Origin: Trichlorobacter lovleyi SZ
Lineage (GTDB): Bacteria > Desulfobacterota > Desulfuromonadia > Geobacterales > Pseudopelobacteraceae
Length of the DNA: 32,000 nucleotides
Assembly: GCF_000020385.1 (NCBI RefSeq)
Contig: NC_010814.1
Coordinates: forward strand, 930,001-962,000
Direction of reading: 5' to 3'
In this document: piece after piece, positions 3,296 to 31,031 of the stretch
Layout: the number at the start of each line of letters is the position of its first letter
Numbering within the stretch: the stretch's first letter is position 1
Notes under the pieces: model-generated
Database searches by the model: none
What the model was told of the DNA's origin: nothing
Seen by the model: only the letters and a program-made list of their open reading frames with translations
Made by a program: the position numbers and the translations under genes

Positions 3296-3325
3296 TTTAG
3301 TAACTAAACAGATAAGGAGATAATC

Positions 3326-3526: not shown

Positions 3527-3588
3527 AAATATCTGCTTGGTATAATCATACATAATTGCTGACAGCAGTTGTGATTAACCAGACAGCA

Positions 3589-3687: not shown

Positions 3688-3780
3688 CTGCTTTTCAACA
3701 CCCACAGCAACAACCACTGTCCGGCAACGCCGGGCCAGTGCCACAAGGCAGACAATCTGCCGCCCTGCAAGGTACTTTCC

Positions 3781-9460: not shown

Positions 9461-9555
9461 TATGCTGTTTTTGGGAACGTTCTTGATTTTCTTTGTGTTC
9501 GTAGCGGCGTTGTGTGAGTAAATGGCGTTTTCAGATTGATTTTAAGGAGACCACG

Positions 9556-9951: not shown

Positions 9952-9974
9952 TGCCGGAGGGGGGAGGTTGTGGC

Positions 9975-14089: not shown

Positions 14090-14129
14090 ATATTCCTCCA
14101 ATCAAAGCAAACTGGTCTACTGAGCTGCA

Positions 14130-16430: not shown

Positions 16431-18137
16431 ATGAAGATTGCCGATATGGATCTGCGGGAGATGCTTTCTTTCAACCCCGAAGGGGGGATCATACACCTGT
16501 TGGGCGAACGGGTTCTGATACATAACGCAAATGTTTCAGGGCTGCTGAAAAAAGAGCTGATCGATTCGCTGGGGGTGTTTACCGCACGCTGCATCCTGAC
16601 CCGTCTCGGCTTTGCCAACGGTTGGCAGACGGCAAAAAACCTGGAACAGCATGCTCCTGACGTCTGGAAGGAATCAAGGAAGTACGCCGGTGCAAAGCTG
16701 CATTCCCTGACCGGATTTAACAACGTTACCCTTAACACCCGTACAGATGGATCTGACGGCAAGTCCCTGATTGAATCGGTCTGGCACGACTGCTATGAGG
16801 CGGAACAGCACCTGCTGCATTTTGGCCGCTCGGAAGAACCGGCATGCTGGCGGGAGGTTGCCTTTGCAAGCGGTTTTGCATCCTATGTCGAGGGGCGGGA
16901 GGTCTATTTTATCGAGGATCAGTGCCGCGCAATGGGGCATGACACCTGCCATGTCACGGCCCGTTACAAAGAGAACTGGGGATCTGAGCTGGAGCCGTAT
17001 CTGCGGTACTACCGCATGGAATCCTCAGCGGCCATCATGCGGGAGCTGAATGAAAAGTTGATCAGTGTGGAAAAGAGGTTGCGTAAGAAGGAGGAGCATT
17101 TCGCCTTTCTTGAGGGGGCCACAACCCCCACGCTGGTTATGTCCCGCAGCCGTGCCATGAAGAACGTGGTCGATATGGCCTGGCGGGTTGCCAAGGTGGA
17201 TTCATCGGTGCTGGTCACCGGCGAAAGCGGCTCCGGCAAGGAGCTGATGGCCCGCTTCATCCATGACCAGTCGCCCCGGGCCGCACAGCCTTTTATTGCG
17301 GTAAACTGCGGCGCACTTACCGAGACATTGCTGGAAAGCGAGCTGTTCGGCCATGCCAAAGGTTCGTTCACCGGTGCGGACCGGGATCGCCCCGGTCTCT
17401 TTGAGGCTGCTGCCGGCGGCACCCTGTTTCTGGATGAGATCGGCGAGGTCTCGCCGGCCATGCAGGTCAAGCTGCTGCGCGCCCTGCAGGAGCGTGAGGT
17501 CCGCAGGGTGGGTGAGAACAAATCGCGCAAGATTGATGTGCGGGTCGTTACGGCAACCAACCGCAACCTGGCTGACGAAATTGCCCAGGGCCGTTTCCGG
17601 CAGGATCTCTACTACCGTCTGCGGGTCATTGAGCTGCAGGTGCCGCCGCTGCGGGAGCGCAACGAAGATATCCTGCCCCTGACCCGAATGTTCCTGGCCA
17701 AGCTGGTGAAACAGATGAAGCTGCAGATTACCGGATTTACCTCCAAGGCAGCTGCGCAATTTCTGCGCTACAGCTGGCCGGGTAATGTCCGCGAGCTTCA
17801 AAACGCGGTGGAGTACGCCGTTGCCATGTGCCAGGGGGCGCAGATCGATGTTGACGACCTGCCCTGCGACCTGCGGGCACTTTCCCTGAGGCCGGTGGTC
17901 TCAGACTGCATCCGTCCGTTGGAGGAGATCGAGCGGGATTACATCATCGGCGTGCTGCGTGCCCTTGGCGGCAACAAGGTGCTGGCGGCTAGCGAGCTGA
18001 ACATCGGTCTGGCCACGCTGTACCGCAAACTGAAGGAGTATGAGGCGCAGGGGGCAATCTCTCTTGATGAGCTCGGCAGCCAGACCGGCTCTACCCCGTC
18101 GGCCAAGTGCAAGTCGCAACGGCCGGAGCCTGCCTGA
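16431..18137 (+). CDS. Sigma-54-dependent transcriptional activator, XylR/DmpR type (XylR_N + V4R sensor, AAA+, Fis-type HTH)
   Basis: The N-terminal LSFNPEGGIIHLLGERVLI...ARCILTRLGFANGW resembles the XylR N-domain/V4R. GESGSGKE Walker A, ESELFGH, GSFTGA (GAFTGA variant). C-terminal HTH AASELNIGLATLYRKLKEY. Confidence 0.9.
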   Translation: MKIADMDLREMLSFNPEGGIIHLLGERVLIHNANVSGLLKKELIDSLGVFTARCILTRLGFANGWQTAKNLEQHAPDVWKESRKYAGAKLHSLTGFNNVTLNTRTDGSDGKSLIESVWHDCYEAEQHLLHFGRSEEPACWREVAFASGFASYVEGREVYFIEDQCRAMGHDTCHVTARYKENWGSELEPYLRYYRMESSAAIMRELNEKLISVEKRLRKKEEHFAFLEGATTPTLVMSRSRAMKNVVDMAWRVAKVDSSVLVTGESGSGKELMARFIHDQSPRAAQPFIAVNCGALTETLLESELFGHAKGSFTGADRDRPGLFEAAAGGTLFLDEIGEVSPAMQVKLLRALQEREVRRVGENKSRKIDVRVVTATNRNLADEIAQGRFRQDLYYRLRVIELQVPPLRERNEDILPLTRMFLAKLVKQMKLQITGFTSKAAAQFLRYSWPGNVRELQNAVEYAVAMCQGAQIDVDDLPCDLRALSLRPVVSDCIRPLEEIERDYIIGVLRALGGNKVLAASELNIGLATLYRKLKEYEAQGAISLDELGSQTGSTPSAKCKSQRPEPA

Positions 18138-18169
18138 TACCCCAATCCTGACGCCTCAGATCTTTCAGG

Positions 18170-18220
18170 CGGCATCACCTGTGACAGTTCGCTCAGTTCA
18201 CGGGTGATGCCGTTTTTTTT
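18170..18220 (+). terminator. Rho-independent terminator of the activator gene
   Basis: cggcatcacc (18170-18179) pairs with ggtgatgccg (18203-18212), followed by T8 (18213-18220). Confidence 0.75.
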
Positions 18221-18267
18221 CACCACCGTTCCCCCTCCGGCAACAACGTCCAAAAGCCGATATCATT

Positions 18268-18277
18268 TTGATAATCA
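18268..18277. promoter_or_regulatory. Candidate enhancer (UAS) TTGATAATCA
   Basis: Same 10-mer as at 16400-16409 (minus strand there). The TGATAATCA core centre is 87.5 bp upstream of the GG of the 18359 promoter. It overlaps the further short palindromes GATATC and ATCATGAT. Confidence 0.5.
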
Positions 18278-18358
18278 TGATTTTCAGTTCGACATGCTAT
18301 CGCGGCCATCCGGCCTGCTTTGGTTTGCATCAGTCTGTAATTGTTAGCTATTTGATGG

Positions 18359-18374
18359 TGGCACAATCATTGCT
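18359..18374 (+). promoter_or_regulatory. Sigma-54 promoter (consensus-quality)
   Basis: TGGCACaatcaTTGCT. 68 nt upstream of ATG 18442 and just downstream of the sigma-54 activator gene and its terminator. Confidence 0.8.
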
Positions 18375-18441
18375 CTTTCTCCTCCAGAGCAGGCATACAC
18401 CATCTGAACCAGCGCTCAGGACGCGGACAAAGGGATCTACC

Positions 18442-19230
18442 ATGCAAACCAGCATCGTCATTTTTACCAGGGTGCCGAAAACAGGCGACACCAAGACCAG
18501 GCTTACCACTGCCAGAGGCGGTATTCTCACTGATGACGAGGCACGGATGCTCTACGAGGGCTGTCTTGTCGACGTGATCAACGTTTGCATCGCAGCCGGT
18601 TGTGGTGAGGTCAAGGTCTGCTACAACGCCTCCGGCGACCGCGACTGTCTGGAGCAGTTGCTGGCACGCAGCTCGGACAGGTCAAAGATCGTTGAGGTCT
18701 ACCCTGATCAGGGAGGCAGTTTTGATGACTGCATGCAATATGCCGCCGATCATATCCTGAAAGCCGCGCCAGGGGCGCCGGAACCGGCAGCGGTGATCAT
18801 TGTCGGCGGGGATATCCCCACCCTGCAGCCGTACATCGTGCAGGATGCGGTCAAAAAACTGCATGATCTTGCCAAGGCGCAACCGGGCGGCAGCGCCCTG
18901 GTTGAAGGGGCCTGCCAGGAGGGCGGATTCTCACTGGTCGGTTTCACCTCCAGTACACCATTCGACTTCAACAAGGTCTTCTATAACATGGACGGCATCA
19001 CGGCACTGGATATGCTGGTGGCCAAGGCCGTTGACAAGAAGATTCCTCTGGCGGTGGTCGAGGCGGTGCCGGATGTGGATATTCCGGTAGACCTGGCCAG
19101 CATGATTCCGGTGGTCAAGGCGCTCAGGGCGGCATCTGTCTACAACGACGCCATTTTAGTGCCGGAGCATACGCTGCAGGTGCTGGATGAACTCGGTCTG
19201 GAGAGTACGGCGTCGCCTCCGCAGCGCTAA
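18442..19230 (+). CDS. DUF2064-like (MobA/CofC-like nucleotidyltransferase/GT-A fold) protein, paralog A
   Basis: IVIFTRVPKTGDTKTRLTT, VIIVGGDIPTLQP, EGGFSLVG and VPDVDIPVDL match the DUF2064 pattern (KaP.pG.vKTRL ... GsDiP ... DGGy.LiG ... DvD). AAGGGA RBS. The ORF-track N-terminal extension (18268) overlaps the promoter and is rejected. Confidence 0.7.
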   Translation: MQTSIVIFTRVPKTGDTKTRLTTARGGILTDDEARMLYEGCLVDVINVCIAAGCGEVKVCYNASGDRDCLEQLLARSSDRSKIVEVYPDQGGSFDDCMQYAADHILKAAPGAPEPAAVIIVGGDIPTLQPYIVQDAVKKLHDLAKAQPGGSALVEGACQEGGFSLVGFTSSTPFDFNKVFYNMDGITALDMLVAKAVDKKIPLAVVEAVPDVDIPVDLASMIPVVKALRAASVYNDAILVPEHTLQVLDELGLESTASPPQR

Positions 19231-19258
19231 CAGACCATCTACAGTCATTTGTCGCCAT

Positions 19259-20230
19259 ATGAAAGGAACCGCTGTGAACCATCAGGAATTATCCCGAGAT
19301 CTGAAAGAACTGCTTACCCTGCGATGGTCCCCCGTAGCGGTCAGGCTGCTGAAGCATGGAGAAGAAAAGCCGGCCAACGTCTTTGAGCCATCCGTGCCGC
19401 TCAGGCATTGCCAGGCCATAACCGCGGCGCGGCGGGGCAACAGCATCTACATGCCCCCTGCCAAACATGCCTGCCCCGACGGGTCGGCAATCATGGGGCT
19501 GATCCCGATGTCGCCCAAGCTGCGTTCCGGTGAACTGTACCTGCTGTTCAAGAAACTGCCCAACATAGAAATAGCCCGCAAAATGATCGCATCGCGGTCC
19601 GAGTTTGCCACCGGCACCTACCGTGCCAGCGTGGTTGCACCGCTGGAGGATGCCGAATTCACGCCCGATGTTGTCATCTTTACCCTCTACCCCGAGCAGG
19701 CGATGTGGTGCTGTTGCGCCTCAAGCTACGGCAGCGGCGACCGGCAGGTCTTCAACACCTCGGGCTTTAACTCCACCTGCTCCGATCTGACGGTGCAGGT
19801 GATGAAGAGTCAGCGGATGAATATCTCCTTCGGCTGCTACGGAGCCAGGGCGATCAGTGATATCAGCGATTTTGAGACCTACCTCGCCATTCCCTACGAC
19901 CAGCTGCCGGCGCTGATCGAATCCCTGAAAAAACTGGCGGTGAAGAGCATCCCCGAGGCGCGGCGCAAGATCTACATGCCGCCGGTCATTGACAACGTCT
20001 CCGGGCCGGAACAACAGGAAGGCTGCCATGTCTCCGTCCGGATACAGCAGGATCGCTGCAACGGCTGCGAACTCTGCGTTGCCTTCTGCCCGGATGCCGT
20101 GCTGGAGATGCGGGAGACCGAAAACGGACCCAAGGCGGTGGCGGTTGCCGAGGAAAAATGCAGCAGCTGCTATACCTGTGTCGGCCAGTGCCCGCAAAAG
20201 GCGATCCAGCTGGAACAGCGGGCGAACTAG
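19259..20230 (+). CDS. DUF169-like protein fused to a C-terminal 2x[4Fe-4S] ferredoxin domain
   Basis: WSPVAVRLL...LRHCQAI..ARRG...ACPDGSAIMGL resembles DUF169/COG2043. The C-terminus has CNGCELCVAFCP and CSSCYTCVGQCP. The start may be GTG 19274 (AAAGGAA RBS) rather than ATG 19259. Confidence 0.65.
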   Translation: MKGTAVNHQELSRDLKELLTLRWSPVAVRLLKHGEEKPANVFEPSVPLRHCQAITAARRGNSIYMPPAKHACPDGSAIMGLIPMSPKLRSGELYLLFKKLPNIEIARKMIASRSEFATGTYRASVVAPLEDAEFTPDVVIFTLYPEQAMWCCCASSYGSGDRQVFNTSGFNSTCSDLTVQVMKSQRMNISFGCYGARAISDISDFETYLAIPYDQLPALIESLKKLAVKSIPEARRKIYMPPVIDNVSGPEQQEGCHVSVRIQQDRCNGCELCVAFCPDAVLEMRETENGPKAVAVAEEKCSSCYTCVGQCPQKAIQLEQRAN

Positions 20231-20257
20231 ACCGGCTTTTGCTGCAAGGGGGAAGAC

Positions 20258-20755
20258 GTGCCATACGAAATCAGATTTGCCGACAGCACTGATGTAGAGG
20301 TCCTGCAGGGTATCTTTCTTGAGAGTGATATGGACCTGGCCGGCGAGATTGAAGAGCATATCGTGATCAGCAGGGGTGATAGCATTATCGGTGGCGGTAT
20401 GCTGACCCAGACGGATCAGGATCTGTTTCATCTGATTGTCTTTGCCATCAGCGAGCATGAACGCACCCATGGCCTGGGCCGGCTGCTGCTTGAAAGGTTG
20501 CTGCAACAGCCCTGGGCCTTTTGCCGGGACGCCAGCATGCCGGAGTGCAGCAGCTATCGGGTCACCACAGTGGCAAAGGGGAAGAGCGCCGGTTTCTACG
20601 GCAAACTCGGCTTTGTCCCGTGCGACTTCAGCGATCTGGCAGCGCCCTTTGCCGGACAGTGCGATGACTGTCCGGAGGCCGCTGACTGCTATCCGGTGGC
20701 CATGAACTGCAACTGCTCACGTATGCCGTCAGGGTCGGAGGGAGCGCTATCATGA
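20258..20755 (+). CDS. GNAT-family N-acetyltransferase
   Basis: GTG start after GGGGGAAG. The acetyl-CoA binding-type block HERTHGLGRLLLERLL and C-terminal FYGKLGFV are typical of GNATs. Confidence 0.7.
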   Translation: MPYEIRFADSTDVEVLQGIFLESDMDLAGEIEEHIVISRGDSIIGGGMLTQTDQDLFHLIVFAISEHERTHGLGRLLLERLLQQPWAFCRDASMPECSSYRVTTVAKGKSAGFYGKLGFVPCDFSDLAAPFAGQCDDCPEAADCYPVAMNCNCSRMPSGSEGALS

Positions 20756-21564
20756 GCAACGCCGCCTTTATCCTGCTGGGCAGCGGCGCCGGTCCCGGTG
20801 CCCCCTCTTTTTTCTGCGACTGTGTCGGCTGCCGGGAGGCGCGGGAACATCCCGCCGCCATCAGGACACGCAGCGGCGCACTGCTGACCACCGCCGGTCA
20901 GCAGGTGCTGATCGACACCCCGCCGGATCTCAGACAACAGTTGCTGAGGGAACGGGTTTCCGACGTTGATACGCTGTTCATCACCCACTGGCATTATGAC
21001 CATTTCGGCGGGATCGGCGAGCTTGAGTACTATGTCAAGCTGAAGCGCATGCAGCCGATCACACTCTATCTGCCCCCTTCGGCACGGGAGCTGTTTCATA
21101 ACGCCTTTCCTGCGCTTGAGGAGATCTTTACGGTGCAGACCTGGGAGTTCTTTCGATCCTACCCGCTGGGTGAGCTCCTAATTACGCCGCTACCGGCCCG
21201 CCACAGCATTGAAACCGCCGGATTCATGGTCAGTTCGCCGACTGTCCGGCTGGCCTATTTCCCGGATACCGCCGGTCTCCCCCCGGAGACGCTGCCGTTG
21301 GTGCAGGGGTCTGATTACCTGATCTGCGACGCCACCTTTAGCGGTGAAAACTGGTTTCCCAACAGCCATATGTCCATTGCCGAGGCGATTGAGCTGGGGC
21401 AGCAGGCCGAGGCAAAGACAGTGATTCTGACCCATATCTCCGTCCATTACAGCCGGCCGTTGACCAGTGTTGAGTTACAGCAGCAGCTGGCAGCGCATCC
21501 CCATGTCCGGGCTGCCCATGACGGCATGGTGATACCCCTGTCCGGTGAGGGGGTAAAACGATGA
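20752..21564 (+). CDS. MBL-fold metallo-hydrolase, PhnP/PqqB-like
   Basis: GSGAGPGAPSFFCDCVGCREAR parallels E. coli PhnP [22 protein letters not shown]. HxHxDH motif THWHYDHFGG. 4-bp ATGA overlap with the GNAT gene. Confidence 0.75.
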   Translation: MSNAAFILLGSGAGPGAPSFFCDCVGCREAREHPAAIRTRSGALLTTAGQQVLIDTPPDLRQQLLRERVSDVDTLFITHWHYDHFGGIGELEYYVKLKRMQPITLYLPPSARELFHNAFPALEEIFTVQTWEFFRSYPLGELLITPLPARHSIETAGFMVSSPTVRLAYFPDTAGLPPETLPLVQGSDYLICDATFSGENWFPNSHMSIAEAIELGQQAEAKTVILTHISVHYSRPLTSVELQQQLAAHPHVRAAHDGMVIPLSGEGVKR

Positions 21565-22148
21565 AACGCTCTCTGGGAGCAGCGACACTGTCACTTCCCT
21601 CGCCGGTCTGGGTTATCGGCAGTTTTGATGCACAGGGCCGGCCGAATCTGATGACCGTCTCCTGGGCCGGTATCTGCTGCTCGGACCCGCCCTGCGTTGC
21701 TATCTCCGTACGGAAGAACCGGCTGACCCATCGCAATATCAGCACGACCGGGGCCTTCACGGTCAATGTGCCCGGCTGCCGCCATCTTGCCCAGGCCGAC
21801 CTGATCGGGATGGTGTCCGGAGTTGTGGCCGACAAGTTTGCGACAACCGGCCTGACCGCTGTGAGCAGTGAACTGGTCAATGCCCCCTATGTACAGGAAT
21901 TCCCCCTCAACCTCGAATGCCGCGTGCTGCACAGTAGTGACCTGGGCAGCCATACCCAGTTCATCGGCCTGATCTGTGATGTCAAGGCTGATGAAGCGGT
22001 GCTTGGCAGGCAGGGAGTGCCGCTTGCCGGGCTGGTACAGCCGGTCCTGGCCAGTGCCCCGGAACGCTCCTATTACACCCTTGGTCCGCAACTGGTCAGG
22101 ACCGCGACCGCAGGCAAGGCCCTGCAGCCAGACCAGCCTGCTGTCTGA
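21561..22148 (+). CDS. Flavin reductase-like (FMN-binding split-barrel, flavoredoxin-type) protein
   Basis: SPVWVIGSFDAQGRPNLMTVSWAGICCSDPPCVAISVRKNR.TH.NI..TGAFTVNV pattern. 4-bp overlap with the upstream gene. Confidence 0.7.
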   Translation: MKRSLGAATLSLPSPVWVIGSFDAQGRPNLMTVSWAGICCSDPPCVAISVRKNRLTHRNISTTGAFTVNVPGCRHLAQADLIGMVSGVVADKFATTGLTAVSSELVNAPYVQEFPLNLECRVLHSSDLGSHTQFIGLICDVKADEAVLGRQGVPLAGLVQPVLASAPERSYYTLGPQLVRTATAGKALQPDQPAV

Positions 22149-22178
22149 TCAGCTACGAAATGTTAGGAATAGACTGCC

Positions 22179-25100
22179 ATGCCCTTTAATCATTCAGACT
22201 GGATACGGCTTCCGTTAGCCTCATCAGCACTGTACCTTGCCCCGGGACAGCCTGCCTGGTTTGTTCCCACGGCAGAGGGGGATCGCCTGCTCTGCTCAGC
22301 GGCCTCCGGCGCTGTTCTGCAGGACAGTGACTCACAACTGTTTCTGCAGCGGCTGCCAAAAGGTACGCCGGCTGTCTATCCGGGCAGAGAACTGCTGCTG
22401 CCCAGGTCTCCCGCATTGCGGGAACTCTGGTTCCATGTCACCGACGCCTGCAACATGAGCTGCAGCCATTGTCTGTTCAGCGCCGGGCCGGGACACTACC
22501 GCCAACTGCCGCTTGATCAGCTGCTGCAGCATGCCGCCACCGCCTACGGATCGCTGGACTGCCGTCTGTTCGCCCTGACCGGCGGAGAGCCGCTGATGTA
22601 TGACGGTTTCAGCCGGTTGATTGAAGGACTGCTGGAACATCAGGATGCTCAGTTGGTGATTTTGAGCAACGGCCTCCTGGCAGACCGGAAGCTTGATCCT
22701 GCCTGGCCCAGGGAGCGGATTCGCCTCCAGATCAGCCTTGACGGTTCACCTGAACAGCATGACGCCGTGCGGGGCAAGGGCAGTTTTGCGTTGCTGCAAA
22801 AACAGCTGCTGTTCCTCAAGGAAAACGGCTGGCAGTTTACCCTCAGCATGTGTCCGACACAGGCCAATCATCAGGATATCCCCTGGCTGGTTGACTTTGC
22901 TGCAGATATGGGGGCGGCAGCGGTTCATTACATGTGGTACTTCATCAGGGGCAGGGGCTCTGAGGAGCAGGCCGTTGCGCCGGTGCAGCTGCTGCCTTTG
23001 CTGGCCGCTGCCATGGAACGCTCTCACAGCAGAGGGGTGCCGATTGACAATCTTGAGGCGATCAGGCAGCGGATCTTCTCGCCGCCGGGCACGATCCATG
23101 ACGGCAGCAGCGCCGGTGTTGAGTCGGCGGCCATCGGGCCTGACAACCGCCTCTATCCCACCGCAGCAACCGTCGGAGTCCGGCAGCTGTCAACCGCTCT
23201 GGAGGCAGGGCTTGCTGCAGCCTGGCAGCAAAGCGAGGTGCTGGCGGAGATACGCCGGACCACAGCAGCTTCGCTCAATACTCCCTGGCGCTACCTCCAT
23301 GGCGGCGGAGACTTTGACCACAGCTATTTCCACGCTGGCAGCTACCAGGGGAGTGATCCCTACCAGCCCCTGATCGAATCGATCTCGCTGCTGCTGATTG
23401 AGCAGGCCGCCAATCGCTTGCCGGAACCGGCCGGAGCAGCCATCCGGCTGAAGATGGGTGAGCTGCTTGAGAACTGCAGCTCCCACGGACCGGTGGCCCT
23501 CTGCCAGAGCAACTGCCTGCTGCATGACACCCGGGACAGCCGTTCCGGGGTGAAGCAGTTCTATGCCGAGGCCGCAGGTGACCGTCGTGCCGATATCCTG
23601 AACCCGGTCTCCTATGCAGACCCGTTGTTAAGCCATATCCCGGCGGAATTCCGTTTTCGCGGCTACGGTTGCGGCAGCCCGATCCTGGATGCCGCCCTGC
23701 AGGCCGGTGAGCGGGTGGTTGATCTCGGCAGCGGCACCGGGGTGGAATGCTTTATCGCTGCCCGCCAGGTTGGTGCTGAAGGGCAGGTAACCGGGGTCGA
23801 TATGCTGGACCCGATGCTGGCACTGGCCAATCGCGGTGCAGAGCAGGTGCGGGCCACGCTCGGTTTCGACAATCTGCGTTTTGTGAAGGGCTATCTGGAG
23901 GCGCTGCCCCTTGAGACAGGCAGCGTTGATGTGCTGGTCTCCAACTGCGTCTTGAACCTGTCGCCGGACAAACGGCGGACCTTTGCCGAGATCTGCCGCG
24001 TGCTGGCTCCGGGTGGCCGGATGGTTGTTGCGGATGTGGTCTGTGAAGATCAGCCACCGGCAGCCATCCTGAATGATGATGAGCTGCGCGGTGAATGCAT
24101 TGCCGGTGCCATGACCCACAAGGATCTGGCCGGTATCGTCGCCGAAAGCGGTCTCTGGCGCTACCGGATCATCCGGCGGCTTCCCTACCGTACCGTCCAG
24201 GGCCATCCCTTTTATTCACTGACCTTCGTGGCTGAAAAGCCTGCTGGTCTGCATGACCTTTGCACGGAAAAGGTCATCTATCCCGGTCCGGCAGAGGCGT
24301 TGAAACTCTCCGGCCAGACCTGGCTCCGGGCCGGTCAACCGGCGTTGATTGCAAAGCAGGAGGCGGAGCTATTCGGGGATCAGCTCTGGAGAATCGATTC
24401 CTTCGGCTTTGTTGACAACGTGGCGATGTCCGGCGGTTCCTGTTGCTCCCAGCCGCCGGAGGCCCACCAGCAGTCTCAACCTGCCAAACCGGCGGAACCG
24501 CAGCACAGCTCCGGCTGCCTGGTCTGCAGTGCCCCGCTGGTCTATACGGCAGCACCCCAGGAAATGACCTGCCACTATTGCGGCGCAGGCGTCAGCAGCC
24601 ACGCAGCCTGCCAGAACGGGCATTTTGTCTGCGACCTGTGCCATATCGGCGACAGCCTGCAGCGTCTGGAACAGCTCTGTAGCAACTCCGGCACGGCAAA
24701 CCCGATGGAGCTGTTCTTACAGATCCGCAATCACCCCTCCTTTCCGCTCCACGGGCCGCAGTACCATGCCCTGGTGCCGGGGGTGTTTCTGGCTGCCCTG
24801 CGTAATGCCGGCCATCCGGTCAGCGATGAGCAGATCAGGACCGCCATCAGCCGCGGTGCGGAGGTGCCGGGCGGGAGCTGCGGTTTCATGGGGGTCTGCG
24901 GCGCTGCAAGCGGTATCGGCATCGCCTTCAGTGTGCTGCTGGAGGCAACTCCGCTCAAGGTCTCCCAGCGTCAGATCGTCCAGCAGGTGGTGCAGCAGGT
25001 GCTGGCAGATATCGCCTCCCAGCAGGCCGCCCGTTGCTGCCAGCGGGATTGCTGGCTGGCGCTGCGCCGTGGCCTCTTGCTGGCCGGTCAGATGTTTGCG

Positions 25101-25298
25101 CTGCCGCTGGAGGAGCTTAAGCCGCTTGCCTGCCGGCAGCTGGACCGGAATAGCGAATGTTCCGGCAACTCCTGTCCGCTCCATCCCGCATCGATCATGC
25201 AGATGCATTTATCAAATCTACAAGAGGTTTTATCAAAAGGATATATGCAGGTAGAACAGCTGATGCAGGTCGTGCTGCAACCGACTGATGTCACTTGA
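22179..25298 (+). CDS. Three-domain fusion: radical SAM domain + ArsM-like SAM-dependent methyltransferase + C-terminal Cys-rich domain (1039 aa)
   Basis: Radical SAM CxxxCxxC at C91/C95/C98 ([15 protein letters not shown]) with LTGGEPL. ArsM-like block YGCGSP...[30 protein letters not shown]...[39 protein letters not shown]...ECIAGAM (about aa 470-690). C-terminal about aa 777-1010: CLVC...CHYC...C..[9 protein letters not shown]...[14 protein letters not shown]...[14 protein letters not shown]. Confidence 0.8.
   Translation: [1039 protein letters not shown]
25208..25237. promoter_or_regulatory. Two direct TTTATCAAA repeats spaced 21 bp (candidate UAS for the internal sigma-54 promoter)
   Basis: 25208-25216 and 25229-25237. 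TTATCAA is the reverse complement of the TTGATAA core found at the other two sigma-54 promoters. The midpoint of the pair is 87 bp from the GG of the 25308 promoter. It lies within the AT-rich last ~30 codons of the 1039-aa ORF. Confidence 0.4.
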
Positions 25299-25307
25299 TT
25301 AACTGGA

Positions 25308-25323
25308 TGGCATGGAGGTTGCT
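25308..25323 (+). promoter_or_regulatory. Sigma-54 promoter (internal to the operon)
   Basis: TGGCATggaggTTGCT, 10 nt after the stop of the 1039-aa ORF and about 124 nt upstream of ATG 25447. Confidence 0.75.
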
Positions 25324-25446
25324 CTGTCAGGTATGACAGCCATGAGCGGTTGTTTCTGTCCGTTCAGGGCAACCCGGCCTTCAGCTGCCGGACGGCCCAC
25401 GGGGACGTGGAGCGCGTGACCAATTACCGAGGGGAAAGGAACCATC

Positions 25447-25797
25447 ATGTTCAAAAGCAAATTTGAGGATAACGAGTTGACCATCCTCATAGAGGAGCCC
25501 GTTCAAAAGGAGCTCATGTTTCGTGGGATCAATCCGGTTGAAGTCTGTCGCCTGATCGAGAGTTTCTCCTCCAAGATCATGGCGTCCAAAAAGGATGAGC
25601 AGATTCAGATCACCAATGAAGATACCAAGGCCAGTCTGGCGCTGGATGTCAAATGGGAGACGGAAAACAAGGTGTCGGTCCAGGTCTCGATTGTCAACCT
25701 GGATGACCTGACCCTTCAGGAGAAGCCTAAATCCAAGGTGGATCTGGCGGATTTTCCGGCCGGGCCGCTTCCGTTTGATGCACCGGCAGAGCAGTAG
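25447..25797 (+). CDS. Small hypothetical protein (116 aa), paralog 1 of an unrecognised family
   Basis: AAAGGAA RBS. Clearly paralogous to 26802-27095 (KFEDNELTILIEEPVQKELMFRG...LIESFSSKIM...LALDVKWE...VSIVNLDD versus KYEFGDLRVIFGEGVKEDLMARG...LVESFGNKLL...ILLDMQWE...VQQVNLDN). Confidence 0.7.
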   Translation: MFKSKFEDNELTILIEEPVQKELMFRGINPVEVCRLIESFSSKIMASKKDEQIQITNEDTKASLALDVKWETENKVSVQVSIVNLDDLTLQEKPKSKVDLADFPAGPLPFDAPAEQ

Positions 25798-25823
25798 GCC
25801 GGATTGCACGGGAGGCTATCTGC

Positions 25824-26603
25824 GTGCGTAATGCCGTTGTCATCTTTACCAAGGTCCCCTGCGCAGGAACGGCCAAAACGCGGCTGACCACTGAGCGGGG
25901 CGGTATCTTGAGCCAGGAGGAGGCAAAGGAGTTTTATCAGGCCTGCCTGCTGGATGTGCTTGAAAGCTGCCTGAAGGCCGACTGCTGCGACCTGTATATC
26001 TGTTATGACGCTGCAGGTGATGGCGCCTATCTGGAGCAGCTGGTGGAAACCGTTGCGCCAGCAGGGCGGGTCAGGGAACTCTTTCGTGACCAAGGCGAAA
26101 GCTTTGACAAAGGGATGCAGTATGCCGTGGATTGCATCCTGAAAAACGGTTCGCCGGAACGGCTGGCCGATGCCGTGGTGATCCTGGGCGGCGATATGCC
26201 GACGCTGCAGCCGCAGACGCTGCGGACGGCCTTCCAGCGGCTGGAGCAGCTGGCACGGCAGGACTCTGCGCTGGTGATCTCGGCTGATCAGGAGTGCGGC
26301 TTCAATATCATCGGCTACACCCACGGCACCCCCTTCAGGTTTGACGAGGTCTTTTACAACCGGCTCGGTGTCACGGCGCTGGATATGATCGCCATCAGGG
26401 CCGTGGAACAAGAGATTCCGGTCGCCCTGCTGGAGACCGTGCCGGATGTTGATCTGGTTCCGGACTTTGCCCACCTGCTGACCCTGTTGAAGACGATGCA
26501 ACTGGCACACAGACATGACAGCAGCATGCAGCTGCCCCACAGGACCATCAATGTCTTGGCGGAACTGGGCTATGAGGCAGCAGCCTTTCCGGCCGCCGGT
26601 TAA
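25824..26603 (+). CDS. DUF2064-like (MobA/CofC-like fold) protein, paralog B
   Basis: GTG start after GGGAGG. About half the residues are identical by eye to 18442-19230 (VVIFTKVPCAGTAKTRLTTERGGIL, VVILGGDMPTLQP, VPDVDLVPD). Confidence 0.7.
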   Translation: MRNAVVIFTKVPCAGTAKTRLTTERGGILSQEEAKEFYQACLLDVLESCLKADCCDLYICYDAAGDGAYLEQLVETVAPAGRVRELFRDQGESFDKGMQYAVDCILKNGSPERLADAVVILGGDMPTLQPQTLRTAFQRLEQLARQDSALVISADQECGFNIIGYTHGTPFRFDEVFYNRLGVTALDMIAIRAVEQEIPVALLETVPDVDLVPDFAHLLTLLKTMQLAHRHDSSMQLPHRTINVLAELGYEAAAFPAAG

Positions 26604-26620
26604 TCCAAAAACGGTAATGA

Positions 26621-26747
26621 GCCACAGAGGGTACGGAGAAACACAGAGAACTGTAAAGAAATCAGTCTTTAGCGTCTGCTCTCCGTAGGAATCAACCCGA
26701 TGGTCGTATTTTCAGTTTTCCTCTGAGACCTCTGTGATCTCTGTGGC
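26621..26747. repeat. Palindromic CCACAGAG-type intergenic element (REP/MITE-like)
   Basis: gccacagagggtacggagaaacacagaga (left) versus the reverse complement of the right end, gccacagagatcacagaggtctcagag. The antisense ORF translates to the junk-like PQRSQRSQRK. Confidence 0.55.
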
Positions 26748-26801
26748 AACTGTTTTTGATAGGTTACTACGCTTACACACAACGAAAGGAAGGGAACAGC
26801 G

Positions 26802-27095
26802 ATGAAAAAGACAAAATACGAATTCGGGGATCTGCGGGTTATCTTCGGTGAAGGGGTTAAAGAAGATCTTATGGCGCGGGGCAAGGAGGTCTTTATTGAT
26901 GAGATCCACCGGCTGGTTGAGAGTTTCGGCAACAAACTGCTGATGACCAAGGCAGCCGGTCCGATCGATTTCACCAACAAGACCTCGGGGATCAGCATCC
27001 TGCTGGATATGCAGTGGGAATCCGATGATTCAGCAGTGGTGTATGTGCAGCAGGTGAATCTGGATAATCCGCAGCCGGCTGCGGTTGTCGAGTAG
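26802..27095 (+). CDS. Small hypothetical protein (97 aa), paralog 2
   Basis: GAAAGGAAGGGA RBS. Paralogous to 25447-25797. Confidence 0.7.
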   Translation: MKKTKYEFGDLRVIFGEGVKEDLMARGKEVFIDEIHRLVESFGNKLLMTKAAGPIDFTNKTSGISILLDMQWESDDSAVVYVQQVNLDNPQPAAVVE

Positions 27096-27114
27096 CCCAG
27101 GGTATTCTTTGTTG

Positions 27115-27149
27115 GACAGGCCGACCACAGGTAGTGGCCGGCCTGTCCG
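27115..27149. terminator. Strong hairpin between convergent operons (bidirectional terminator candidate)
   Basis: ggacaggccgaccac / gtggccggcctgtcc, 14 of 15 bp paired, 5-nt loop. Lies between stop 27095 (+) and stop 27161 (-). Confidence 0.6.
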
Positions 27150-27160
27150 GTAGTTGGCTG

Positions 27161-27658
27161 TTATAAGGTAAACCGTTCACCGCAGTCGCTGCTGTCTCCA
27201 CGGATCTTTTCCACGGCATGTCCGATCACCTGCCAGACCGCTTCAAGATTTTCCACCGCCCCTTTCGGGCTGCCGGGCAGGTTGATGATCAGGCTCTGTG
27301 CCCTGATGCCCACCACCGCCCGCGACAGGGCTGCCATCCTGGTTTTTTCCATGCTGCGCAGGCGCATCAGCTCGGCCATGCCCGGTATCAGGCGGGTAAC
27401 CACCTGCATGGTGGCCTCAGGTGTCACATCCCGGGGGGAGACCCCGGTTCCGCCGGTGGTAAGGATCAGGTCGGCGGTATCGCTATCGGCCCAGGCGGTC
27501 AGCCTGGCAATGATCTGCTGATATTCATCCGCGATCACCTCGGCGGCAACGGTAGTTACCCCCCGCTCAGCCAGCCAGGCGCTCAGGGCAGGGCCGCTGG
27601 CATCGACCCGCTCACCCCGTGCCCCTTTGTCGCTCAAGGTCAGAATGGCCGCCCTCAT
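27161..27658 (-). CDS. moaB: Molybdenum cofactor biosynthesis protein MoaB/MogA family
   Basis: ILTLSDKG...LILTTGGTGVSPRDVTPEA...INLPGSPKG motifs. 4-bp overlap with moaC. Confidence 0.85.
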   Translation of the reverse strand: MRAAILTLSDKGARGERVDASGPALSAWLAERGVTTVAAEVIADEYQQIIARLTAWADSDTADLILTTGGTGVSPRDVTPEATMQVVTRLIPGMAELMRLRSMEKTRMAALSRAVVGIRAQSLIINLPGSPKGAVENLEAVWQVIGHAVEKIRGDSSDCGERFTL

Positions 27659-28137
27659 GCTGCCTCCTCCCGGCGATACAGGCCGCTTTTACCACCTTCT
27701 TTATAGAGCAGCCGGATGTTTGCAATGCTGATGGATTTGTCGGTCCCTTTGCACATGTCGTAGATGGTCAGGGCGGCAACCGCTGCGCCGGTCATCGCCT
27801 CCATCTCAACCCCGGTCCGTTCAAAGGCCCGTACGGTGCAGCGTGCCTGAATCCTGCAGGCTGCCGGGTCCTGATCAAACTCGATTGAGACCGAGTGCAG
27901 GGAAAGCGGATGGGAAAGCGGAATCAGGTCGTCGGTCTTCTTGGCTGCCATGATGCCGGCCAGACGTGCCACCCCCAGCACATCCCCCTTGGATACGCTC
28001 TTCCGGGCAATGGCGGCCAGCAGTTCTGCAGACATGATCACATCGGCAGCTGCCGTGGCGGTCCGCATGGTCTCCTGCTTGCTGCTGACATCCACCATGA
28101 CCGCATGGCCCTGTTCATCAAAGTGGTTAAAGTTCAT
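27655..28137 (-). CDS. moaC: Cyclic pyranopterin monophosphate synthase MoaC
   Basis: MVDVSSK..T.R.A.A, GDVLGVARLAGIMAAKKT.DLIPLSHPL, TGVEMEAMTGAAVAALTIYDMCK. Confidence 0.9.
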   Translation of the reverse strand: MNFNHFDEQGHAVMVDVSSKQETMRTATAAADVIMSAELLAAIARKSVSKGDVLGVARLAGIMAAKKTDDLIPLSHPLSLHSVSIEFDQDPAACRIQARCTVRAFERTGVEMEAMTGAAVAALTIYDMCKGTDKSISIANIRLLYKEGGKSGLYRREEAA

Positions 28138-28835: not shown

Positions 28836-31031
28836 TCATTTCTTACCACTGTCAACAGCCTGCAGGCAACAGGGAATGCCGTTGTAGGTGGCGGTACCGA
28901 TCAGCGGATCTGCCGTTGCATAGTCGGCGCTGGTCAGCAGATTGGCGTTGGCCAGCCACAGTCCGCCCAGTTCCGGCTCGGCGGCCTTCTTCTCAGGGTA
29001 CCACCAGCCATACTCGACACTGACCACGTCATCGCACATCTCGGAGATCTTGAGTGTAAAGCAGGCAGTTCCCTTTTCGGTGGTAACCCGGACGGGTGTA
29101 CCTTCTGCCAGGCCGAGCTTGTGGGCAGTTGCCCGGCTCACCTCGGCCCAGGGCTCGGGATGCAGCTTGCGCAACCCCTCAAGCTGATGAAAGCTGGAGG
29201 CGTAGTAGGGGTGATACCTGGCCCCGGTGATCAGGGAAAGCGGATACTGCTCGTCAACAGCCGCCACCGGTTTGGGGACCGGCAACGGTTCTGCCCCGAG
29301 TCCGGCAAGCAGCTCGCTGTACAGCTCAATCTTGCCGGTTGTGGTGGCAAATCCGGCGGCCTTGCCGGTGGCCGGATCGATTCTTTCGTGTTTTTCGTAC
29401 TCCTCCGGCAGCGTGTACAGGCCATGACGGCTGAAGGTCTCCCAGTCAACCCCGGTTGGGGCAAGGGTGGCCTCAAGGCTGTCCTCGAAGCTCTGCCAGG
29501 GCCAGTCTTCCTGCTGACCCAGCCGGCGCCCCAGTCCCTGCCAGAAATCAAAGTCAGGCCGCCGTTCGTAGTACGGTTCCACCGCCTTGGCGCCGCCGTA
29601 GGCCAGGTTGGCGGTGCCGGCCTTGGTCTCGAACAGGGCCCGCTCCAGCACACCGGCACTGGGTAGCAGGTAGTCGGCCAGCATGGCTGTCGGGGTCTGG
29701 AACAGTTCCAGCACCACCAGCAGATCCAGGCTCTTGAGTGCCTGGTAGACCAGGCTGGTATCCGCCTGGGTCAAGAGCGGGTTGGTGGCCATGACAATCA
29801 TGGAGCGGATCGGGTAGGGTCGGTCGGTCAGCATCGCCTGCCAGACCAGGTTGGGTTGCGTCGAGGTCAGGTAGCGCATCGGCAACCGTTTGTCCTGTTT
29901 GCTGGTCAGCTTTCTGATCTGTTCGTAGCCGTGATAGCTCTGCAGCTTCAGCTGGCCGAGCTGCTTCCTGCGTTGTGTCTCCAAAAACCGGTCACTCAGC
30001 TCCAACTCAAGCTCTGGTATGAAGTCAGGCATCCCGGTGATGCAGGAGGCCCCTTTGCGGTCAATATTGCCGGTGATGGCCCGCAGAATATCAAGGGAGT
30101 GATGAAGCGGCACGCTGTTCCGGCCGATCTGGTCGATACCCCGTCCGGTAAACAGCGCAGAGGGACACTGCAGGGCGTACAGACGGGCTACCTCCAGTAG
30201 CTGCTCCGCTGGTATGCCGGTGGCCTCTGCAACGTAGCCGGGAGTGTAGTGTTGCAGGTGTCCGGCCAGCCTGGCAAAGCCGTGGCACCAGGCCTCCACA
30301 AAGGGGGCGTCGTACCAGCGGTTCTGGATGATGGCCTGGACGAGTCCCAGGGCGAGCACCGCATCGGTACCGGGCCGGACCGGGAGCCAGTGGGTTGCCA
30401 GCTCAGCCGTCCTGGTGCGGCGGGGATCGACCACGATCAGCGGTTTGCCGGTCCGGCTGTACTGCTGGATCCTGTGCCACAGCAGTGAGTTGTCGGATTC
30501 GGCGTGGTTTGCCCCCCACAACATCAGGCAGCCGGTCAGGTCAGGTTCCAGCTCGTTATCGAGGGGCCAGCCGTAGCTGATCGCATGCAGCAGGGTGCCG
30601 GGGTTCCAGCAGATCTGGCCGATACCGACATTGTTGGGACTGCCGAAGAGGGTCATGAAACGGTGCAGGGGCCAGTAGACGGCATGGGGGCCGCCGATGC
30701 AGGTGGCCAGGGTTTCCGGCCCGAACTGTTCCTTCAGCCCGGCCAGCTTTTCCGCAATCTCGTCCAGGGCCTGGTCCCAGCTGATCCGATGCCACTGGCC
30801 GCTGCCCCGTTCACCAACCCGTTTCAGGGGGTAGTTGACGCGGTCAGGGTGGTCCAGAAACTGCGGTGCCATCCGCCAGCGATGGCAGCCGTGCTGAATA
30901 CGTTCATCACCCGGATACTGGGTCGGGTCCGGGGCAACCCCGGTCACTCTGCCGTTTTCCACGGTGGCGGTCAGGCCGCATTGATAGCCGCAAAAGCGGC
31001 AGTTTGTCTTTACTGTCTGTGGCATGGTCAT
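28836..31031 (-). CDS. Molybdopterin (bisPGD) oxidoreductase, cytoplasmic, canonical N-terminal 4Fe-4S motif
   Basis: 731 aa. C11-x2-C14-x3-C18...C49 (NCRFCGYQCG...HGC). No Tat signal. Typical DMSO-reductase-family blocks. Confidence 0.85.
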   Translation of the reverse strand: MTMPQTVKTNCRFCGYQCGLTATVENGRVTGVAPDPTQYPGDERIQHGCHRWRMAPQFLDHPDRVNYPLKRVGERGSGQWHRISWDQALDEIAEKLAGLKEQFGPETLATCIGGPHAVYWPLHRFMTLFGSPNNVGIGQICWNPGTLLHAISYGWPLDNELEPDLTGCLMLWGANHAESDNSLLWHRIQQYSRTGKPLIVVDPRRTRTAELATHWLPVRPGTDAVLALGLVQAIIQNRWYDAPFVEAWCHGFARLAGHLQHYTPGYVAEATGIPAEQLLEVARLYALQCPSALFTGRGIDQIGRNSVPLHHSLDILRAITGNIDRKGASCITGMPDFIPELELELSDRFLETQRRKQLGQLKLQSYHGYEQIRKLTSKQDKRLPMRYLTSTQPNLVWQAMLTDRPYPIRSMIVMATNPLLTQADTSLVYQALKSLDLLVVLELFQTPTAMLADYLLPSAGVLERALFETKAGTANLAYGGAKAVEPYYERRPDFDFWQGLGRRLGQQEDWPWQSFEDSLEATLAPTGVDWETFSRHGLYTLPEEYEKHERIDPATGKAAGFATTTGKIELYSELLAGLGAEPLPVPKPVAAVDEQYPLSLITGARYHPYYASSFHQLEGLRKLHPEPWAEVSRATAHKLGLAEGTPVRVTTEKGTACFTLKISEMCDDVVSVEYGWWYPEKKAAEPELGGLWLANANLLTSADYATADPLIGTATYNGIPCCLQAVDSGKK

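Follow-up and report, generated by a model that had tools for sequence, protein, structure and literature searches.

In the 32,000-nt stretch of Trichlorobacter (Geobacter) lovleyi SZ DNA analyzed here (positions 930,001 to 962,000 of contig NC_010814.1; called the window below, with positions counted from its first letter), nine genes of the same strand, A to I (18442-27095, +), form an operon that is assembled from two modules. The first five genes belong to a core set that recurs in Desulfuromonadota and Bacillota and encode a DUF2064 transferase (A), a DUF169-ferredoxin protein (B), a GNAT acetyltransferase (C), a metallo-beta-lactamase (MBL)-fold hydrolase (D) and a flavin reductase-like protein (E). 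The other four make up a proposed organo-metalloid module, which comprises F, a fusion of a radical S-adenosylmethionine (SAM) domain with an ArsM-like methyltransferase, a Zn ribbon and DUF5714, together with the orphan small proteins G and I and a second DUF2064 transferase, H. Separate-gene versions of the two modules co-occur in loci that carry ArsS and ArsM genes. The operon lies in an island of genes for molybdenum or tungsten enzymes and for molybdenum cofactor (Moco) biosynthesis. We read it tentatively, at a probability of about 0.4, as an anaerobic pathway for arsenosugar-like organo-metalloids that would be coupled to the Mo/W enzymes of this island. No description of the gene combination was found in the literature searched, where COG2043, TIGR04282/TIGR04167 and a fusion of radical SAM with ArsM came up in incidental mentions only; a preliminary description of this DNA, made from the letters alone, likewise knew of no such system.

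In the pathway that we favour, the XylR-type activator encoded just upstream would switch the operon on. The cysteine triad in the ArsM-like domain of F would then bind As(III) or another soft metalloid for SAM-dependent methylation, and the radical SAM domain of the same protein would form a further carbon-metalloid bond, for which the 5'-deoxyadenosylation of dimethylarsenite by ArsS is the precedent. The Cys-rich Zn-ribbon/DUF5714 tail might aid this second step as a relay that binds the metalloid or carries electrons. The DUF2064 transferases, the MBL protein acting as a phosphodiesterase and the GNAT would tailor a ribosyl or nucleoside arsenical, while low-potential electrons would be delivered by the DUF169-ferredoxin protein, the flavin reductase and an Fe-S protein of the CCG family. 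The neighbouring Mo/W enzymes may reduce arsenic-oxo species or use an aromatic co-substrate. Every chemical step is something we infer, as are the metalloid and the inducer.

Operon structure and sigma-54 control

The positions and order of the genes, the two ATGA overlaps, the two sigma-54 promoters and the terminal hairpin were all found where the preliminary description had placed them (Table 1), and its domain calls for A to F and H were confirmed by Pfam profile search. For B we took the Met at 19259 as the start, as in its homologues; the longest open reading frame (ORF) would begin at 19187. The F protein of the window is ACD94646.1 and the activator is ACD94640.1 (identical), both of the 3,917,761-bp T. 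lovleyi SZ chromosome. We observed the complete operon only in relatives at the level of Trichlorobacter, where the gene order is the same in six of six loci (L005, L008, L092, L093, L094 and L108; names of this form are locus labels). By identity of the F protein, these relatives stand at 95% (L008) and 69% (L005), and by the match of the DUF169 protein at 99% (L092 and L093), 97% (L094) and 75% (L108).

The sigma-54 consensus TGGCAYN5TTGCW has only two exact matches in the 32 kb, one at 18359 directly before A and one at 25308 directly before G, each on the + strand. By chance 0.14 matches would be expected, and none of 100 shuffles reached two. Both sites are conserved in every related locus that retains the region, six relatives being compared. 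Promoter 1 is kept in L008 and L092-L094, with a copy of variant spacer in L108, and promoter 2 is kept upstream of G in L008, L092-L094, L108 and L005. A promoter scan found no sigma-70-like promoter on the + strand between 18000 and 27400. The gene of a sigma-54 enhancer-binding activator ends 221 bp before promoter 1 and its product matches Sigma54_activat (241 bits), XylR_N (96 bits), V4R (35 bits) and HTH_8 (45 bits); it is likely the regulator of both promoters. The claim of a sigma-54-driven operon was thus borne out by the conserved promoters and by the activator immediately upstream. The activator gene itself is a separate transcription unit, since it ends in a hairpin and T-run of its own, and part of this hairpin was flagged as terminator-like by a terminator scan.

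Sigma-54 control extends well beyond Trichlorobacter. Of 26 further loci that were scanned, from different phyla, most have a -24/-12 element ahead of the gene that opens the core, and often also one before the second Mo enzyme or the Moco genes. As the element stands ahead of the core in all lineages, control by sigma-54 appears to be an old, shared property of the core. Enhancer-binding proteins of the XylR type are also found near the core in L089, L097 and L108. Catabolic operons of the XylR/DmpR type have in common with the T. lovleyi operon an activator with XylR_N and V4R domains beside consensus -24/-12 promoters. However, the T. lovleyi genes are not of the aromatic ring-oxidation kind, and PAS-type activators accompany the same core elsewhere.

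At its far end the operon probably stops at the hairpin between the convergent I and moaB genes. The 76-nt segment 27090-27165 that contains this hairpin folds with -35.8 kcal/mol (z = -4.0), and a simple terminator scan missed it because it has no T-run. Of the 198 nt upstream of I, 157 are a recent inverted-repeat insertion resembling a miniature inverted-repeat transposable element (MITE) and missing in two close relatives; it is no part of the ancestral operon. The 171-nt segment that holds it folds with -53.7 kcal/mol (z = -3.7), and a search of the window for another copy of the insertion gave none. The small proteins G and I are paralogues with 37% identity. For G no family match was found, its AlphaFold2 model (predicted local distance difference test score, pLDDT, 66) matched no PDB fold at E <= 0.001, and only 28 homologues are known from our search. 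A search of the window against Rfam gave no match, so that no Moco riboswitch is present in it.

The fusion protein F and its family

The methyltransferase domain of F is ArsM-like over its full length. Its top five PDB matches are all ArsM structures (5evj with 133 bits over aa 450-761, 4kw7 and 4fr0 with 109 bits each, 5eg5 and 8xt7), and it was also aligned with a further ArsM structure, 4fs8, at 109 bits. The motifs YGCG, SNCVLNL and GECIAGA of F align to the As(III)-binding cysteines C72, C174 and C224 of CmArsM, and the corresponding residues C498, C590 and C640 are invariant across 15 fusion proteins of 48-100% identity. The only curated relative of the C-terminal DUF5714 is the metal-binding selenoprotein MbdU. 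The fusion of radical SAM and ArsM-like domains named in the preliminary description is real, with full-length ArsM likeness and an invariant triad, but it falls below the curated ArsM cutoffs and contains a radical SAM domain of another type than ArsS (see below).

Homologues of F number 506, and the best 120 of these 506 all contain the same three Pfam domains. They are hosted by Desulfuromonadales, Geobacterales, Desulfobacterales, Desulfobulbales, Planctomycetota and others. F genes other than that of the window most often have a DUF2064-family gene beside them. It encodes a fused TIGR04282+TIGR04283 protein in L010 (Desulfobacterales), L014 (Phycisphaerae) and L016 (Planctomycetaceae), where both halves lie above the curated cutoffs (195-198 and 196-223 bits, respectively), and a TIGR04282 protein of 162 bits in L026. 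Among the 80 best genome matches to F, 59 are stand-alone loci with an ArsM-like gene only, and an ArsS-like radical SAM gene lies within 10 kb in 34 of these 59, usually adjacent. This genome scan, which also yields the count of 23 F loci given below, is dominated by generic ArsM genes and is a ranking-biased sample. Because of the TIGR04282/TIGR04283 neighbours and the 34/59 pairing, F looks like a fused equivalent of the ArsM+ArsS pair, built with a radical SAM domain of another lineage. Prior knowledge here consists of the NCBIfam names that tie TIGR04167, TIGR04282 and TIGR04283 to arsenosugar synthesis, and of a note from 2020 on Geobacter homologues of dehydroxylases that is taken up below. 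The link of DUF2064 proteins to ArsS-type chemistry that the preliminary description had named held up, both in the neighbours of F and in core clusters with a genuine ArsS. If it is true that F alkylates arsenic under anoxic conditions, this would also matter for how arsenic is methylated and speciated in aquifers and paddy soils dominated by relatives of Geobacter.

Two other functions were considered for F and rejected. The label of a pterin C-methylase, given by the Joint Genome Institute (JGI) to some homologues and considered for the radical SAM protein at the window end too, was dropped: that neighbour is TrsS/Tes-like, and F is only 26% identical to it over 199 residues. A peptide maturase was suggested by the top radical SAM matches, which are SPASM proteins, but F has no SPASM cysteine motif and no match to PqqD or an RRE (recognition element), and a small-gene partner is missing for most F genes. 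As a separate observation, DUF5714-like and ArsM-like ORFs are adjacent in L034 (Dehalococcoidales), and L033 has a DUF5714-like ORF; this is consistent with DUF5714 and ArsM as a functional pair outside the fusion.

We also considered plain arsenic detoxification, with F as an elaborate volatilising ArsM and the neighbouring genes unrelated. The ArsM-like domain with its conserved cysteine triad would fit such a role. However, the tight packing, the 4-nt overlaps and the two conserved sigma-54 promoters speak for one functional unit, an arsR, acr3 or arsC context is lacking both here and around the other F genes, and the radical SAM and DUF5714 parts are invariant in the F family, so that we regard this explanation as very unlikely.

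Equally improbable in our view is an amino-acid antimetabolite like arsinothricin, for which F would combine an ArsL-like transfer of a 3-amino-3-carboxypropyl group with ArsM methylation, the GNAT would give self-resistance and a LysE protein would be the exporter. The arsinothricin pathway (ArsL, a non-canonical radical SAM enzyme, with ArsM and the GNAT ArsN1) resembles the operon in its radical SAM + ArsM combination, in a C-As bond derived from SAM and in the GNAT nearby. Here the two domains are even joined in one protein, the GNAT lies within the operon, and a gene for an amino-acid exporter of the LysE/RhtB type is found in the right flank. Yet F reaches 149 bits with the arsinothricin ArsM model, for which the cutoff is 500, and the GNAT matched none of the curated models of resistance acetyltransferases. 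The GNAT moreover belongs to the core, of which many loci have no radical SAM/ArsM gene, and the lysE gene lies on the strand opposite to the operon and is missing from the near-identical L093. An amino-acid-like product, proposed earlier by analogy with arsinothricin, thus found no specific support.

The core across phyla and its possible role

Genes A to E are the T. lovleyi version of a recurrent array that consists of DUF2064, often a CCG/HdrD-like gene, DUF169-ferredoxin, GNAT, MBL and a flavin reductase or old yellow enzyme (OYE) gene, sometimes with a kinase of the aminoglycoside phosphotransferase (APH) type. We compared its context in three genomes and 47 metagenome loci, and all counts refer to those 24 loci that remain after removal of redundancy and are 12 kb or longer. 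Besides the DUF169 gene, DUF2064 is present in 23 of 24, MBL in 20, GNAT in 19, CCG in 17 and FMN reductase in 14, while ArsS, an ArsM-like gene or F is found in 10. In the window the CCG gene, the usual sixth member, lies 14 kb to the left of the core. As for the neighbourhood conservation that the preliminary description had proposed to examine, A to E are co-localised across phyla, but F is found mostly without the rest of the operon.

The families of the single proteins are as follows. A and H match DUF2064 with 80.3 and 78.7 bits (Pfam cutoff 25.8). The core DUF2064 proteins form a longer, separate subfamily with TIGR04282 scores of 65-79 bits (65-68 bits for the orthologues in L089, L099 and L102), compared with 162-198 bits for the true members beside F. 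H also has weak MobA-like NTP_transf_3 and CofC matches; H-type copies stand beside ArsS in L102 and at the end of further core clusters, e.g. L099. B combines DUF169 (204 bits, Pfam) with 2x[4Fe-4S] and has homologues of 60-80% identity in Geobacter, Sporomusa, Desulfosporosinus, Dehalobacter, Desulfitobacterium and Syntrophomonadaceae; its invariant Cys/His residues include C51, H70, C72, C174 and C193. C matches Acetyltransf_7 and Acetyltransf_1 (Pfam), D matches Lactamase_B_2 with 104 bits, and E matches Flavin_Reduct with 114 bits and is replaced by an OYE-type FMN reductase in some loci. In sequence searches neither DUF169 nor DUF5714 matched a solved structure, and for DUF2064 the sole match was the structural-genomics entry 3cgx. 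The AlphaFold2 model of B (pLDDT 59) was too poor for use. Full-text literature searches found no mention of DUF5714 or DUF2064, and DUF169 is mentioned incidentally only (PMC5322559, PMC8762117, PMC4001038). The papers on the genomes of G. lovleyi and P. carbinolicus do not discuss the operon genes; a paper on the 'Magic cluster' of methanogenic benzene degradation and Haft's preprint on the SAO selenoprotein proved unrelated to the operon. The three large families DUF169, DUF2064 and DUF5714 belong here to one closely delimited, inducible operon, the host of which is cultivated and genetically studied.

The evidence for a connection of the core with arsenosugar-type chemistry comes from its sister clusters. 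In L089 (Geobacter sp. AOG2), L097 and L100, the DUF2064-DUF169-GNAT-MBL-flavin reductase array borders on genes for ArsS, an ArsM-like methyltransferase and an aquaglyceroporin, and is followed by those for MobA, MobB and MoeA. The ArsS of L089, which served as positive control, scores 406 bits with TIGR04167 (cutoff 300), and a C_GCAxxG_C_C protein is encoded there as well. Further core loci with ArsS are L099, L101, L102, L105, L119 and L121. The arsenosugar cassette (Synechocystis ArsM + ArsS; TIGR04167, TIGR04282, TIGR04283, NF038099) has in common with the operon an ArsM-type methyltransferase, a radical SAM protein, DUF2064-family transferases, a phosphoesterase-type hydrolase and a Cys-rich redox protein; the likeness is extended by the genuine TIGR04282/TIGR04283 proteins beside F in other phyla and by the genuine ArsS of the sister clusters. 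However, in T. lovleyi a single protein combines the radical SAM and methyltransferase domains with a Zn ribbon and DUF5714, the radical SAM domain of F is not of the ArsS family, the operon DUF2064 proteins are of the separate subfamily, and a TIGR04283 protein is lacking. Additional members are the DUF169-ferredoxin, GNAT, FMN reductase and CCG proteins, and the operon stands under a sigma-54/XylR-type activator in a Mo-enzyme/Moco island of strict anaerobes. The locus bears both on the steps that follow ArsS in arsenosugar-type pathways and on the role of the widespread TIGR04167/TIGR04282 sets in non-photosynthetic anaerobes.

Two side observations concern the core loci. A gene for a Rep3-like protein (plasmid initiator, winged-helix) lies beside ArsS in two unrelated core clusters (L089, 7692-8525; L099, 3137-4051) and may encode a regulator rather than a replication protein. 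In addition, the metagenome sample Ga0316604 accounts for 10 of the 47 loci (L095, L099, L101, L105, L110, L111, L112, L118, L119 and L121), which come from clearly different organisms; its habitat seems to select strongly for the island.

Several findings weigh against an organo-metalloid pathway. With respect to F, the scores with the curated ArsM models are below the cutoffs (PRK11873, 203 bits against 263; arsenosugar ArsM, 99 against 400; arsinothricin ArsM, as given above). No cysteine of F lies opposite CmArsM C44 ('TSACT', first methylation step) in the 5evj alignment, which is weak there; C433 and C446, two other invariant cysteines, are located upstream of this weakly aligned region. 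The radical SAM domain reaches 42.5 bits with TIGR04167 (ArsS; cutoff 300), which ranks 15th among the radical SAM models, it is closer to SPASM-type maturases and MoaA-like enzymes than to ArsS, and Pfam gave no match in F to DUF3641 (PF12345), the Cys-rich C-terminal domain of ArsS. With respect to context, the genes A-E, G, H and I are all missing within 10 kb in 23 non-redundant loci of F homologues (39-60% identity) among the matches listed. Since A to E are in turn widespread without F, the operon is not built around the fusion, contrary to what had been proposed. The genes arsR, arsC, acr3 and arsB are not among the annotated ORFs of the window, as had been noticed before, no ars resistance genes are found among the recurrent neighbours of other F genes, and the regulator is of the type with aromatic or hydrophobic effectors instead of an ArsR. 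As regards the tailoring enzymes, A and H stay below the TIGR04282 cutoff of 134 (75.2 and 78.8 bits), and D scores 122 bits with PhnP (TIGR03307; cutoff 272). The preliminary assignment of a TIGR04282-type DUF2064 protein and a PhnP-like MBL protein thus stands at the level of the Pfam families but misses the curated NCBIfam cutoffs. Finally, the linkage of the core to Moco genes (at least one Moco biosynthesis gene in 17/24 loci) and to Mo enzymes of the acetylene-hydratase/catechol-dehydroxylase clade that bind the bis-pyranopterin guanine dinucleotide cofactor (Mo-bisPGD; 15/24) is commoner than that to ArsS, ArsM or F, and the Desulfitobacterium core in L091 has neither kind of partner within 10 kb.

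For the MBL protein and its neighbour a further lead comes from C-P lyase operons, the tail of which contains phnO (GNAT) and phnP (MBL cyclic phosphodiesterase); the substrate of PhnP is a ribosyl cyclic phosphate. The adjacent GNAT and PhnP-like MBL genes in an operon with a radical enzyme are reminiscent of this arrangement, which we take as a lead only; in contrast to it, the score of D falls short as stated, and no phn genes are among the annotated ORFs of the window.

The co-localisation counts fit better with a second explanation, the main rival, in which the core would be an accessory system of Mo/W enzymes of the acetylene-hydratase/catechol-dehydroxylase clade. It would either activate these enzymes reductively with low-potential electrons or modify their pterin/nucleotide cofactor by means of a MobA/CofC-like DUF2064 nucleotidyltransferase and the MBL phosphodiesterase, and F or ArsS would be optional, e.g. 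for clearing As(III) that attacks dithiolene or Fe-S centres. In the Sporomusa-type loci a 731-aa Mo enzyme with 4-cluster and NrfD subunits lies inside the core, in one same-strand array after a sigma-54 element, and MoaA, MoaC and MOSC come after this array; L099 and L102 have a near-complete Moco gene set between the core and the second DUF2064 gene; and the weak MobA-like and CofC matches of H point in the same direction. Acetylene hydratase requires a strong reductant for activity, which is also in keeping with this explanation, as are the identities between the T. lovleyi and Sporomusa islands given in the next section, which indicate a unit that moves as a whole. Against it stand the classical MobA, MobB and MoeA, which are present too, the recurrence of ArsS, ArsM or F with aquaglyceroporins, which it leaves unexplained, the pairing of F with TIGR04282/TIGR04283 proteins where no Mo genes are seen, and the L091 core with no Mo enzyme within 10 kb. 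None of the core families is known to act in Moco maturation. We consider an accessory role possible though on balance unlikely, and that the core represents an accessory system of Mo/W enzymes of a categorically new kind has a minority but genuine chance. The Moco link itself is no accident of position, because it recurs across phyla, and this recurrence favours the earlier alternative of a pathway that tailors a pterin or nucleotide cofactor about equally with the organometalloid reading put first at that time.

Another explanation, which we find decidedly doubtful, is that the core together with an ArsS- or F-type enzyme might form a new maturation or activation route for W/Mo enzymes of the same clade, through a modified ligand (5'-deoxyadenosyl- or organo-metalloid-derived), a cofactor variant or an activator. 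If this is true, 'arsenosugar-type' genes of anaerobes would serve molybdoenzyme biology and not arsenic metabolism. The clade is large and mostly uncharacterised, and a sigma-54-controlled gene set shared across phyla gives a handle on its substrates, activation or cofactor.

The surrounding Mo-enzyme island

The Moco genes claimed for both flanks were recovered, with MoaE, MobA, MOSC and MobB on the left and MoaB, MoaC and a Mo-bisPGD enzyme on the right (Table 1). Both Mo enzymes of the island are closest to acetylene hydratase (PDB 2e7z), well ahead of Psr and Fdh. For enzyme no. 1 this is the best PDB match with 272 bits, and enzyme no. 2 matches with 336 bits over its full length. In enzyme no. 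2, CRFCGYQC replaces CQSCDINC of acetylene hydratase; the tungsten ligand Cys141 is kept, but the enzyme is not an acetylene hydratase because the catalytic Asp13 is replaced by Gly, and it is probably a member of the clade related to catechol dehydroxylases. The idea that the window is DNA of an acetylene fermenter with a 731-aa acetylene hydratase was rejected, the organism being T. lovleyi and Asp13 missing. With Sporomusa malonica (L090), Mo enzyme no. 1 shares 77% identity, its Fe-S partner 74% and the CCG protein, encoded there within the operon, 53%, which indicates that the island moved as a unit, horizontally between Desulfuromonadota and Bacillota.

Table 1. Coordinates of the operon, its control elements, the domains of F and the genes of the surrounding island (TAT, twin-arginine translocation)
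Feature	Position	Strand	Remarks
Mo-bisPGD enzyme no. 1 (756 aa) and small 4Fe-4S partner (131 aa)	159-2824	+	enzyme without TAT signal
CCG/HdrD-like Fe-S protein	3781-4884	+	elsewhere mostly between DUF2064 and DUF169 genes
MoaE and MobA	9514-10562	+	
MOSC and MobB	13658-14651	-	
CDGSH iron-sulfur protein	15900-16241	-	divergent from activator gene
Sigma-54 enhancer-binding activator, 568 aa	16431-18137	+	XylR_N, V4R, AAA+ and Fis-type helix-turn-helix
Hairpin and T-run closing activator gene	18170-18212	+	15-nt arms, 93% complementary, then TTTTTTTT
Palindrome TGATAATCATGATTTTCA	18269-18286	+	~100 bp upstream of promoter 1; candidate activator binding site
Sigma-54 promoter 1, TGGCACaatcaTTGCT	18359-18374	+	consensus -24/-12 match
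A: DUF2064 GT-A-fold transferase, core subfamily, 262 aa	18442-19230	+	Pfam; first gene
B: DUF169 + 2x[4Fe-4S] ferredoxin domain, 323 aa	19259-20230	+	~30 nt gap before
C: GNAT acetyltransferase, Cys-rich C-terminal tail, 165 aa	20258-20755	+	~30 nt gap before
D: MBL-fold hydrolase, PhnP/RNase Z-like, 270 aa	20752-21564	+	4-nt ATGA overlap with C
E: flavin reductase-like protein, 195 aa	21561-22148	+	4-nt ATGA overlap with D
F: radical SAM/ArsM-like/Zn-ribbon/DUF5714 fusion, 1039 aa	22179-25298	+	~30 nt gap before
F, radical SAM core (aa 87-240)	22437-22898	+	CX3CX2C at C91/C95/C98, invariant; Radical_SAM 60 bits
F, full-length ArsM-like methyltransferase (aa 450-761)	23526-24461	+	Methyltransf_31; ArsM structures
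F, Zn-ribbon/Cys-His region (aa 780-822)	24516-24644	+	
F, DUF5714 (aa 831-1001)	24669-25181	+	Pfam 196 bits
Sigma-54 promoter 2, TGGCATggaggTTGCT	25308-25323	+	10 nt past F stop codon
G: orphan small protein, 116 aa	25447-25797	+	148 nt gap before; no family
H: second DUF2064 transferase, paralogue of A, 259 aa	25824-26603	+	~30 nt gap before
MITE-like 157-bp insertion between H and I	26605-26761		terminal inverted repeats; absent from L093 and L008
I: orphan small protein, paralogue of G, 97 aa	26802-27095	+	198 nt gap before; no family
GC-rich hairpin between convergent I and moaB	27112-27149		probable operon end
MoaB-like protein and MoaC	27161-28137	-	
Mo/W-bisPGD enzyme no. 2 (731 aa), acetylene-hydratase-like	28836-31031	-	no TAT signal
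TrsS/Tes-type radical SAM protein	31039-31992	-	runs off window end

Catechol dehydroxylases are a sister clade of acetylene hydratase, and those of the soluble type, as in Gordonibacter, lack a TAT signal and come with a small 4Fe-4S partner and a neighbouring transporter of the major facilitator superfamily (MFS), according to the part of Maini Rekdal et al. (2020; PMC7028382) on which we draw. The same part names Geobacter among the carriers of dehydroxylase homologues, citing the G. lovleyi genome paper. The layout around Mo enzyme no. 1 fits this soluble Gordonibacter type, the enzyme being likened by the description given there. Partners of the DUF2064, DUF169, GNAT, MBL or radical SAM-ArsM kind are not described for the dehydroxylase loci of Gordonibacter and Eggerthella in the part of PMC7028382 used.

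From these similarities a further explanation arises, namely that the island, under sigma-54/XylR control, serves to degrade or respire an aromatic compound by reductive dehydroxylation of the catechol type, the substrates possibly being aromatic arsenicals, e.g. reduced roxarsone. The operon would then serve the reduction, acetylation and hydrolysis of substrates or products and the methylation of the freed As(III). Apart from the closeness of both Mo enzymes to acetylene hydratase, the sister group of the catechol dehydroxylases, the Gordonibacter-type layout, which in the window is accompanied by an arylamine N-acetyltransferase gene and the XylR_N/V4R activator, and the recurrence of flavin-reductase- or OYE-type FMN reductases argue for it. 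On the other hand, the window has no ring-cleavage, CoA-ligase or benzoyl-CoA pathway genes, the activator varies by lineage between the XylR and the PAS type, ArsS-type chemistry is not accounted for, and the likeness to characterised dehydroxylases is one of layout. We therefore regard an aromatic system as rather improbable.

Some other genes of the island also recur elsewhere. CDGSH proteins are found beside Mo enzymes of the no. 1 type in L090 and L098. For the radical SAM protein at the window end, the full-length orthologue in L005 (12720-14048) scores 387 bits with TrsS, a selenoprotein family, and 315 bits with Tes (tetraether lipid synthase), and a similar gene follows the Mo enzyme in L127.

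Several observations on the flanks remain to be recorded. An arylamine/N-hydroxyarylamine N-acetyltransferase gene at 4914-5717 (Acetyltransf_2, 211 bits) lies beside the CCG and MFS transporter genes and is unusual for a relative of Geobacter; it hints at an aromatic amine as substrate. A Cys-rich Zn-ribbon-like ORF of 89 aa is located at 2901-3170 (-), next to a low-GC (~45%) stretch of ~600 bp (3170-3780) with a Lys/Glu-rich ORF of 66 aa (3326-3526). Left of the operon, the island is interrupted by an IS21-type istA/istB pair (6981-9219), which separates the MFS transporter gene from moaE, and an IS1595-family element (14763-15823; transposase 14768-15766, -) lies between mobB and the CDGSH gene; the latter insertion is recent, as it is absent from the 98-99% identical strain L093. 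In L092, a relative of 90% identity, an aquaglyceroporin and an ArsM-like gene that the window does not have are found additionally at ~808-2641, between the equivalents of mobA and the 3-deoxy-D-arabino-heptulosonate 7-phosphate (DAHP) synthase gene. In L093 the similarity to the window stops right after I (27104/27105), and the right flank (17682-20969) holds a Sel1-repeat protein and an RHS/YD-repeat toxin in place of moaB, moaC, lysE and the Mo enzyme, so that the junction behind the operon is a recombination point.

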